From: Escherichia phage vB_EcoM_ULIM3
Sequence record: OQ850289
DNA length: 64,000 bases
Direction: 5' to 3' (one strand)
Shown here piece after piece: positions 6,675-6,906 of this stretch (position 1 is the stretch's first letter; every line of letters begins with the position of its first letter). Both the position numbers and the translations under genes were made by a program. Below the pieces are notes generated by a model that worked only from the letters and a program-made list of their open reading frames with translations, ran no database searches and was not told the origin of the DNA.

Positions 6675-6703
6675 TTGACATTGAGATGTGACTACTTTAT
6701 AGT
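6675..6703 (+). promoter_or_regulatory. sigma70-type promoter inside the tRNA island
   Basis: TTGACA (6675-6680), 17-nt spacer, TATAGT (6698-6703). Confidence 0.6.
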
Positions 6704-6906
6704 AACCTTAGTTTTCGTTGCGTAGCGTCTATTTTGCAAATTTAAAATAAATGCAAACGACAATGTTTTTCTGGCAGTAGCTTGATAGGCTAAACACCAG
6801 TGAGGTCTTCCAATCCCTCATCAAAAAATTTGGCGTACTCGCCCACGGTATGATTAATAAGGTGGGCATCTTTAAGGGCTTTCTAAGAGAGTCTTTAAAG
6901 ATTAAT

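Follow-up and report, generated by a model that had tools for sequence, protein, structure and literature searches.

A widespread phage RNA, probably derived from transfer-messenger RNA, with a conserved tag reading frame and an arm complementary to host tmRNA

Transfer-messenger RNA (tmRNA) is understood as either one molecule or a cis-encoded pair, with both the transfer RNA (tRNA) half and the message half being needed. The present analysis concerns an RNA element of ~160 nucleotides (nt) at positions 6709–6868 (+ strand) of a 64,000-nucleotide stretch of Escherichia phage vB_EcoM_ULIM3 (record OQ850289; this whole stretch is called the window below), which, judged by sequence comparison, very probably belongs to a widespread and unannotated family of tmRNA-derived phage RNAs possessing the message half only. 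In common with tmRNA (RF00023), the element has a resume codon GCA with U and A at positions -5/-4, a ten-codon ssrA-type tag of the form AN[DE]...L..A, a stop codon in a helix-5-like loop and pseudoknots after it, and the Rfam model aligns its message region; unlike tmRNA, it has two downstream pseudoknots instead of three, and an antisense arm where tmRNA has its 5' tRNA-like half and, as it seems, also in place of pseudoknot 1. In the two-piece tmRNAs (RF04321; alpha-proteobacteria, cyanobacteria and others) the message is likewise located on a separate RNA, base-paired to the 3' tRNA-like half, a likeness which for the phage RNA is the proposal of the docking model considered below, with host tmRNA as the partner. 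However, the two pieces originate from one gene and are paired via the acceptor stem and helix 2, whereas for the phage family no acceptor piece was found, and the pairing partner would be a complete host tmRNA, contacted in its message region.

Among phage RNAs acting on host RNAs, AgvB and AsxR are anti-sRNAs encoded by lambdoid prophages of pathogenic E. coli and targeting Hfq-dependent small RNAs (sRNAs); they resemble the family in pairing with or mimicking a host regulatory RNA, but have neither a tag template nor a relation to tmRNA. The T4 RNA species 1 and 2 (rnaC, rnaD), too, are small and stable, have no known function and are encoded among the tRNA genes of a phage, and the first-pass annotation of the window had pointed to this analogy. 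It does not extend to homology: the family profile had no nhmmer match in the T4 tRNA region, and the pairing of rnaC and rnaD with tmRNA was not significant in comparison with shuffled sequences. Phage tmRNAs have been listed only for some mycobacteriophages (Bxz1-type) and Bacillus phage G, with a 'TLD-only' form in DS6A that is reported to inhibit host tmRNA, and the tmRNA database pipeline discards truncated hits (PMC4131195, PMC11915505). All of these are phage-encoded tmRNA derivatives, as the element appears to be, but DS6A is a mycobacteriophage and keeps the tRNA-like domain only, in contrast to the message and pseudoknot half plus antisense arm of the present family, whose hosts are Enterobacterales and Aeromonas. 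No description of such an RNA was found in the openly accessible literature. The family thus marks a blind spot of annotation, since tmRNA finders require a tRNA-like domain and drop truncated hits.

A sequence search with window positions 6704–6906 matched 661 phage records. The genome is of the Felixounavirus (Felix O1-like) type, with 99% identity to Escherichia phage Andreotti over 6600–7000, and a core of ~95–125 nt (window 6744–6868) was present at 70–82% identity in unrelated phages beyond this genus, including Ackermannviridae (Cba120, KpS110), Schitoviridae (TR2), several siphovirus genera (ZX4, Carvaje, C1, STGO-35-1), Aeromonas phage pIS4-A and the 109-kb CMS-2020a; the family was also found in phi63_307. 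The family profile further retrieved the element in 37 of 120 IMG/VR loci, which were the output of a pattern scan and of which about two thirds were chance matches removed by the profile. The profile placed it in the late leader of the lambdoid phage HK620, downstream of pR' and upstream of the annotated late terminator; in a lambdoid prophage of E. coli it lies between the antiterminator Q and the holin gene, and in a P1-like phage-plasmid between a dam-family methyltransferase gene and tRNA-Asn. Complete E. coli genomes carry it in 670 of 5426 cases (~12%), with 568 of the 719 places being on plasmids, mostly of ~80–100 kb; the one plasmid that was examined was P1-like. The element adjoins phage tRNA genes in the same orientation in many lineages, and it is kept in phages where no tRNA follows (ZX4, C1 and the late leader of HK620). 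Across the records it was never annotated as an RNA, but at most as a 'hypothetical protein'.

The coding potential of the element resides in the frame GCA AAC GAC AAT GTT TTT CTG GCA GTA GCT TGA TAG at 6753–6788 (+), which translates into ANDNVFLAVA followed by two stops. As in tmRNA, it opens at the resume codon with neither an AUG nor a Shine-Dalgarno sequence and has a hydrophobic, Ala-rich C-terminus. The tags of other lineages (ANDDVVLMAA, ANEEMYLAVA, ANDEQFLAVA, ANDDLMLMAA, ANDNYALAAA and similar) can be compared with ANDENYALAA of E. coli ssrA. Exactly ten codons and an in-frame stop were present in all 45 members examined, the stop being TAA, TGA or TAG. Synonymous variation occurred at codons 1, 2, 3, 5, 6, 7 and 10: the changes at codons 1, 2, 7 and 10 were exclusively synonymous (GCA/GCT, AAC/AAT, CTG/TTG and GCC/GCT/GCG, respectively), save for one CTG-to-ATG at codon 7, and all four Val codons are in use at codon 5. 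Overall, the variation within the tag was synonymous or conservative, and the other two frames usually contained stops. At the level of the alignment, the combination of a ten-codon frame, a stop and synonymous variation is the signature of a translated tag, beyond a merely conserved RNA sequence. The frame is preceded by an A/U-rich linker (6739–6752, +) with U at -5 (6748) and A at -4 (6749), the latter invariant in 45 of 45 members. The -4 position corresponds to A86 of tmRNA, which is nearly universal and the main frame-setting nucleotide (PMC2481249). In most lineages the region 5' of the resume codon forms a small hairpin (GUUU-UUAG-AAAC), which the Felixounavirus variant lacks, and the tmRNA model aligns a weak hairpin there, at the place of pseudoknot 1.

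The 3' part of the tag is enclosed in a structure comparable to helix 5 of tmRNA: a hairpin at 6771–6800 (+), closed by CUGG 6771–6774 and CCAG 6797–6800, holds the final four codons of the tag together with the stops, the first of which is in the loop. It is followed, as in tmRNA, by pseudoknots, here two, both of H-type. Pseudoknot a (6801–6833, +) consists of S1 (UGAGG 6801–6805 with CCUCA 6816–6820) and S2 (CCAA 6810–6813 with UUGG 6830–6833), and pseudoknot b (6834–6868, +) of S1 (CGUAC 6834–6838 with GUAUG 6848–6852) and S2 (GCCCAC 6841–6846 with GUGGGC 6863–6868). The third loop of pseudoknot b, AUUAAUAA, is largely conserved, differing in phi63_307, CMS-2020a, L052 and the P1-like plasmid. 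In the first-pass annotation the strands of the latter S2 had already been noticed as a hairpin, which stands at these positions, while its other hairpin, tttgca/tgcaaa, is really at 6733–6738/6752–6757, ~10 nt 5' of where it had been placed.

In an alignment of 27 sequences the four well-aligned helices were 97.8–99.3% paired, with nine pairs changed on both sides. The outer part of the helix-5-like hairpin was 98.1% paired, with one pair converted from G-C to A-U in 10 sequences; S1 and S2 of pseudoknot a were paired at 97.8 and 99.1%, with three doubly changed pairs each; and S1 of pseudoknot b was paired at 99.3%, with two doubly changed pairs. Examples of compensation include UGAGG/CCUCA to CAAGG/CCUUG or CGGGG/CCCCG in S1 and CCGA/UCGG to CCAA/UUGG or CCAG/CUGG in S2 of pseudoknot a, and CGCAC/GUGUG to CGUAC/GUAUG or CGCAG/CUGUG in S1 of pseudoknot b. 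The last of these helices has a G-U pair in 26 of the 27 sequences, which fixes the + strand as the folded one. For S2 of pseudoknot b the alignment count was only 81.5% because of misaligned indels; on inspection it always pairs, despite changes in sequence and length (GCCC/GGGC, GGCGGGAG/CUCCCGCC, GCCCUGA/UCAGGGC, CCCGU/ACGGG and AUCC/GGAU), so that this helix, like the inner part of helix 5, rests on inspection and not on clean counts. The covariation score of the whole structure was 0.249, compared with 0.106 in shuffled alignments, none of 500 of which reached it, and with no more than 0.124 in slid controls. Folding, which had been suggested as a check in the first-pass annotation, gave a clear outcome: the + strand of 6710–6906 folds at -58 kcal/mol (z = -4.54), better than all 200 shuffles, with no such excess for the - strand (z = -1.37).

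The element has no detectable tRNA-like domain. The acceptor stem with G3-U70, the T-arm and the 3' CCA end of tmRNA were not found for it, ARAGORN made no tmRNA call for the window, for 17 related loci or for those Andreotti regions that lie beyond the window, and a T-arm with ACCA after it is absent from the window. The promoter-like sequence of the virulent and siphovirus lineages adjoins the first conserved nucleotides directly, so that a 5' acceptor strand has no space there. A phage RNA without acceptor stem, T-arm and CCA would not be alanylated or enter the A site alone, and neither SmpB nor EF-Tu would be expected to bind it. With the gathering thresholds of Rfam 15, the window and ten related loci yielded only tRNAs and one unrelated int-alpA match. 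An Rfam scan had been proposed earlier, and although no family reached its threshold, the tmRNA models were the best non-tRNA matches below it, aligning the resume region and the tag stretch with high posterior probability. RF00023 scored 12.4–16.1 bits against a gathering score of 47, and the permuted-tmRNA model (RF04321) reached 32.5 bits together with the upstream tRNA-Ile and 14.8 bits without it, again against a gathering score of 47. Other Rfam matches by E-value (PreQ1, microRNAs, HIV-1 SD) were dismissed as being at chance level.

The place of the 5' tRNA-like half is occupied by an arm, UAGUUUUCGUUGCGUAGCGUCUAUUUUGCA (6709–6738, +), which is antisense to nt 77–105 of host tmRNA, with E. 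coli tmRNA (ssrA) serving as a proxy for host tmRNA in all pairing figures. The target covers the edge of pseudoknot 1, the A-rich linker, U85/A86, the resume codon and codons 2–6. These first ~30 nt, UAGUUUUCGU ... GCGAC ... UUUGCGG, are the most conserved part of the family. The exact 10-mer ACGAAAACUA equals ssrA nt 97–106, within codons 3–6, GUCGC covers the -1 triplet and the resume codon of tmRNA, and CCGCAAA is the 3' edge of pseudoknot 1. In RNAduplex calculations the arm of the window paired with E. coli ssrA at -26.0 kcal/mol, compared with -20.1 ± 2.2 kcal/mol for shuffled arms, none of 60 being as good. The arms of nine lineages all landed within ssrA nt 60–107 at -26 to -36 kcal/mol; in five of the nine none of 60 shuffles was as good, and the same was true of Cba120 by way of a longer duplex reaching nt 139. 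In all 43 members compared, pairing of the arm was stronger with host tmRNA than with the sense region of the same RNA (mean -30.0 vs -14.3 kcal/mol), and cofolding of the full-length RNAs favoured the heterodimer by 6.6 to 14.9 kcal/mol. The complementarity to a defined site is extended, conserved and, in six of the nine lineages, above chance, as expected of a trans-acting antisense RNA.

Different arms match the same host stretch in another register (GCGUCUAUUUUGC in the window, GCGACUGUUUUU in L094 and GCGAUUAUGCGG in TR2). The 5' region was also considered as a homologue of the D-loop and helix 2a of tmRNA, a candidate that was rejected because the arms of L094, CMS-2020a, Felixounavirus and TR2 are unlike helix 2a; that such variants are nevertheless complementary to ssrA nt 76–106 argues against a relic of this helix. 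On the host side, the target from UAGUC to codon 7 was identical in the sampled Enterobacter, Serratia, Pantoea, Pectobacterium, Providencia, Raoultella, Aeromonas, Vibrio and Photobacterium, and the stretch just 5' of UAGUC differed among the sampled genera by only 1–2 bases. This invariance would explain why the arm is near-constant across phage hosts while the tags drift, and the conservation of the target in Enterobacterales, Aeromonas and Vibrionaceae fits the host range of the phages.

In the window, the element is embedded in an island of 26 tRNA genes over 5 kb, all on the + strand (ARAGORN, Rfam), between tRNA-Ile (6585–6659) and tRNA-Arg(UCU) (6907–6983, +; ARAGORN and the Rfam tRNA model, 62.8 bits). 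The start of tRNA-Arg and the ~200-nt gap in front of it were as first described, and so was the near-consensus promoter at 6675–6703 (+), with the -35 hexamer TTGACA at 6675–6680 and, after a 17-nt spacer, the -10 hexamer TATAGT at 6698–6703. With 11 of 12 matches it was the top promoter-like site within 4500–11000, a region comprising the 6.5-kb tRNA island; the scan found 14 sites in total, compared with 15.1 expected in shuffled sequence, so a single match is not above chance by itself. The promoter is backed by its position rather than by the hexamers alone, since other lineages have -35/-10-like hexamers, read by eye, a few nucleotides 5' of the same RNA start (TTGACA-17-TAATCT in phi63_307, TTGACA-17-TAGATT in ZX4 and TTTACT-17-TAAGAT in L052). 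The usual promoter spacing would put the transcription start near 6710. No terminator-like site was found by the scan between the promoter and tRNA-Arg, and an RNase P cut at the 5' end of tRNA-Arg would define the 3' end of the upstream RNA.

The match to the family profile stops at 6868, and the last 38 nt (6869–6906, +), containing a spacer hairpin and the leader AAAGAUUAAU before tRNA-Arg, are beyond the conserved core. A hairpin motif, AAGGGTTCTTACGAG(T/A)(A/G)TCCTT(T/A)AA, recurs in the tRNA island at 6029–6053 and 9137–9161, and 6873–6897 looks like a further copy. The spacers immediately 5' of tRNA-Lys (6426), tRNA-Arg (6907) and tRNA-Leu (7569) end in a similar AAAGAT(A/T)...TTAAT leader. 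The proposal of a discrete stable RNA instead of a throw-away leader is supported for the core, by its conservation in unrelated phages, the compensatory changes in four helices and the strand-specific folding. The accompanying statement that the region had no open reading frame (ORF) longer than nine codons does not hold by the rules of the ORF finder used: an ATG-initiated ORF of 31 amino acids (aa) at 6850–6945 (+) begins within the region and runs into the tRNA, and a 46-aa ORF is present at 6729–6869 (-). That first guess of a stable RNA was correct in spirit, with partial support, but the nature of the RNA as a likely tmRNA-like tag template went unrecognised.

According to the reading that we favour, with confidence and doubt about evenly balanced, the phage RNA, derived from tmRNA, would dock on the tmRNA of the host, cover the tag template there and probably offer a template of its own. 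A sigma-70 promoter would drive a transcript whose first ~160 nt (6709–6868) constitute the tmRNA-derived RNA, and RNase P acting at tRNA-Arg would free the element from the co-transcribed tRNAs. The arm would then dock the phage RNA on host tmRNA, locking the host tag template in a duplex, and the sense half would act as a copy of the tmRNA message module, with its linker, ten-codon degradation-type tag, helix-5-like loop and two pseudoknots. In such a complex the edge of pseudoknot 1 would be the point where the phage strand leaves the duplex, with its own resume codon 15 nt further on, compared with 11–12 nt in tmRNA. A ribosome that the tRNA-like domain of the host and SmpB have rescued might then resume on the phage template, with addition of the phage tag. 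Translation of a tag that has no start codon implies trans-translation, for which a tRNA-like domain is needed; in the infected cell only host tmRNA has such a domain available, and the arm would be the physical link to it. The pseudoknots and the tag sequence of tmRNA can be replaced, frame choice depends on A86, and pairing around the resume codon has been proposed as the cause of the inactivity of the A86C mutant (PMC2481249). An anti-tmRNA or template-swap mechanism is plausible as a model, and the complementary arm suggests that many enterobacterial phages, among them P1-like plasmids and HK620, may interfere with ribosome-rescue tagging. Its most specific form, a template hijack by a hybrid two-piece tmRNA with the host alanyl-tRNA-like domain and SmpB and the phage message, is a possibility that we put forward tentatively. 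In that case, proteins rescued in the course of infection, or at the stage of late gene expression in the P1-like and lambdoid phages, would receive the phage tags (...AANDNVFLAVA, ...LMAA and others) in place of ANDENYALAA and so meet a different fate.

Several points weigh against this. The variant of the window itself forms the weakest predicted duplex of the family (z ~ -2.7), with a dimer gain of only -6.6 kcal/mol, and for the arms of L052 (1 of 60 shuffles as good), CMS-2020a (6 of 60) and the P1-like plasmid (7 of 60) the advantage over shuffles was not clear. In the minimum-energy fold the arm is paired in cis with the resume region of the same RNA, in a hairpin at 6716–6765, and this could be its real role; as the sole role, the cis hairpin was discarded, being weaker than the host pairing in all 43 members. 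The ends and the abundance of the RNA are deduced from sequence features, a hybrid with two sets of pseudoknots may not fit into the ribosome, and we know of no natural tmRNA that takes its template in trans. Finally, the phage tags still look like degradation tags, and the benefit of a swap is thus not evident.

The closest competitor shares the docking with the favoured reading. The arm might simply inactivate host tmRNA, by masking or through RNase III cleavage of the duplex, and thereby stop tagging, with an untranslated sense half that only stabilises the RNA or helps it to reach tmRNA or the ribosome. The complementarity and the dimer energies speak for this equally, no unprecedented template swap is required, and pairing around the resume codon has been proposed to block tmRNA (PMC2481249). 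It is nevertheless considered rather doubtful, as it leaves the ten sense codons, the in-frame stop, the synonymous variation and the A at -4 (45 of 45) unexplained. The same coding signature is a difficulty for the idea of a decoy that soaks up a factor binding or cutting the message region of tmRNA (S1, RNase R or a host defence nuclease), similarly to phage tRNAs thought to substitute for cleaved host tRNAs: selection would be expected on nucleotides and not on the peptide. Despite the same-strand location next to phage tRNA genes in many lineages and a message region resembling that of tmRNA, this was judged improbable, since the similarity of the message region to host tmRNA is weak (local alignment score 29–31), and the arm, which is complementary instead, is given no role.

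Still less probable is that the element represents the coding piece of a true two-piece tmRNA, with the acceptor piece (T-arm, acceptor strand and CCA) encoded elsewhere in the phage. The 32.5 bits of the permuted model, the T-arm-like hairpins in modules next to the element in lambdoid and P1-like loci and an odd permuted tRNA-like sequence at window 6199–6260 are in line with it, but the score drops to 14.8 bits without tRNA-Ile, no exact ACGAAAACUA is present in the window (apart from the complement of the arm itself) or in the Andreotti regions outside it, neither a tmRNA by ARAGORN in the window or the remainder of Andreotti nor a T-arm with ACCA in the window was found, and the promoter abutting the arm in several lineages leaves no space for an acceptor strand. 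Two candidates for a partner were also eliminated: the region 5972–6425 is confined to Felixounavirus and close relatives and is thus not co-distributed with the element, and the companion A/B-arm modules are absent from the window. An ordinary pre-tRNA leader or a decaying captured ssrA fragment without function would agree with a position directly 5' of a tRNA without a terminator and with the sub-threshold level of every Rfam match; it is very improbable, being contradicted by the comparative data, namely the conservation where no tRNA follows (ZX4, C1 and the HK620 late leader) and the purifying selection shown by compensatory changes and a kept frame. Practically negligible, in turn, is the probability of a small protein from the 46-aa ORF of the minus strand (6729–6869): the ORF is listed, some records annotate a 'hypothetical protein' there and the minus strand has long stop-free stretches, yet the frame is broken or shifted between lineages, and the G-U pair (26 of 27) and the fold z-scores indicate an RNA of the + strand.

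The combination of a message half only, peptide-level selection and a host-aimed arm would mean either that the template is delivered in trans or, at least, that host tagging is switched off; either outcome, if true, would represent a new viral route to manipulate translation quality control and would give a first functional lead for the non-coding stretches among phage tRNA genes. Because the element is present in tractable systems (HK620, P1-like plasmids, Felixounavirus phages and CBA120), the idea is directly testable.

In several relatives the element is flanked by repeated modules, consisting of a 12–20 bp stem with conserved sequence (CACAACAGGUAAGAGCAUUG ... CAGUGCUCUUUCCGUUGUG) around a variable cargo of ~40–90 nt. 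They were observed in HK620 (L134, 830–910 and 1080–1180), the P1-like plasmid (L132, 3180–3270 and 3615–4400), ZX4 (L002, 2620–2920) and the IMG/VR lambdoid loci L019, L022, L043 and L064. The P1-like copies have compensatory changes in the stem (GGUAAGGGUAUUU/AAGUACCCUUACC), and some cargos hold a T-arm-like hairpin (GGGUUCGAAUCCC), by which they may mimic the tRNA elbow. The modules had no annotation, no Rfam match and no ARAGORN call. In the P1-like plasmid pCREC463-2, ~930 nt between tRNA-Thr and a TerB-family gene (L132, 3615–4546) contain no annotated gene and are packed with modules of this type and with recurring hairpins (AAUGCGCAGGCUGAUGCGC, GCCGGAGAUCAGCACCGG), which gives the appearance of an extended array of structured non-coding sequence in a classic type of model phage.

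Other unusual sequences were observed within the tRNA island of the window. The stretch 6199–6425 contains a T-arm (GAAGGUUCGAUUCCUUC) with an acceptor 3' strand (ACUCGGC-A); its complement, the 5' strand of the acceptor (GUCGAGU), comes 3 nt after it, and then a normal D-arm, a hairpin of 8 bp and ~180 nt that include a long-range helix (UGUAGAUAAG 6297–6306 with CUUAUCUACA 6404–6413); this permuted or split tRNA-like layout had no ARAGORN call, occurs in Felixounavirus and close relatives only and is annotated in one record as 'tRNA-pseudo'. A second tRNA-like sequence, at 7130–7212, with the acceptor GGGACG/CGUCCC, the anticodon loop UUCCAAC (CCA, Trp), the T-arm GGGGUUCAACUCCUC and an oversized D region, was missed by both ARAGORN and the Rfam tRNA model; the related phi63_307 has a normal tRNA-Trp. 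Four copies of CAGAAGACCNNTTNCAGCAA are located between tRNA genes (5470–5489, 5637–5656, 6059–6078 and 6146–6165), up to 35 nt in length and 85–94% alike, and could be a processing or regulatory site. A long hairpin just 5' of tRNA-Leu (7474–7573) gave sub-threshold matches to plant and animal microRNA precursor models, which most likely merely reflect a stable stem-loop.

Directly 5' of the tRNA island, a 471-aa protein is encoded at 3720–5135, with matches to DUF7788 (1e-43) and DUF2828 (4e-29); the latter is presumably similar to the Ro60-type TROVE/vWA RNA-binding proteins, and a link between this protein and the non-coding RNAs of the island is possible. A Y-RNA/Ro interpretation of the locus, prompted by the same ORF, was abandoned, since the ORF is of the DUF2828/DUF7788 type and no YrlA match was obtained. 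The near-identical phage Andreotti encodes, in a region of its genome that the window does not cover (L256, 3104–3799), a polynucleotide kinase, an enzyme of the RNA-repair type, which may be relevant to damage and repair of tRNA and tmRNA in infection. As to T4, the species 1 RNA of rnaC (L255, 2909–3047, -) starts with UCGAUUCGAGG, resembling the tmRNA D-loop GGAUUCGAC, and ends in a perfect T-arm (CCGGGUUCGAAUCCCGG) after UACUUAAUAA; it is unrelated to the phage family described here and may represent another type of tRNA- or tmRNA-like relic.

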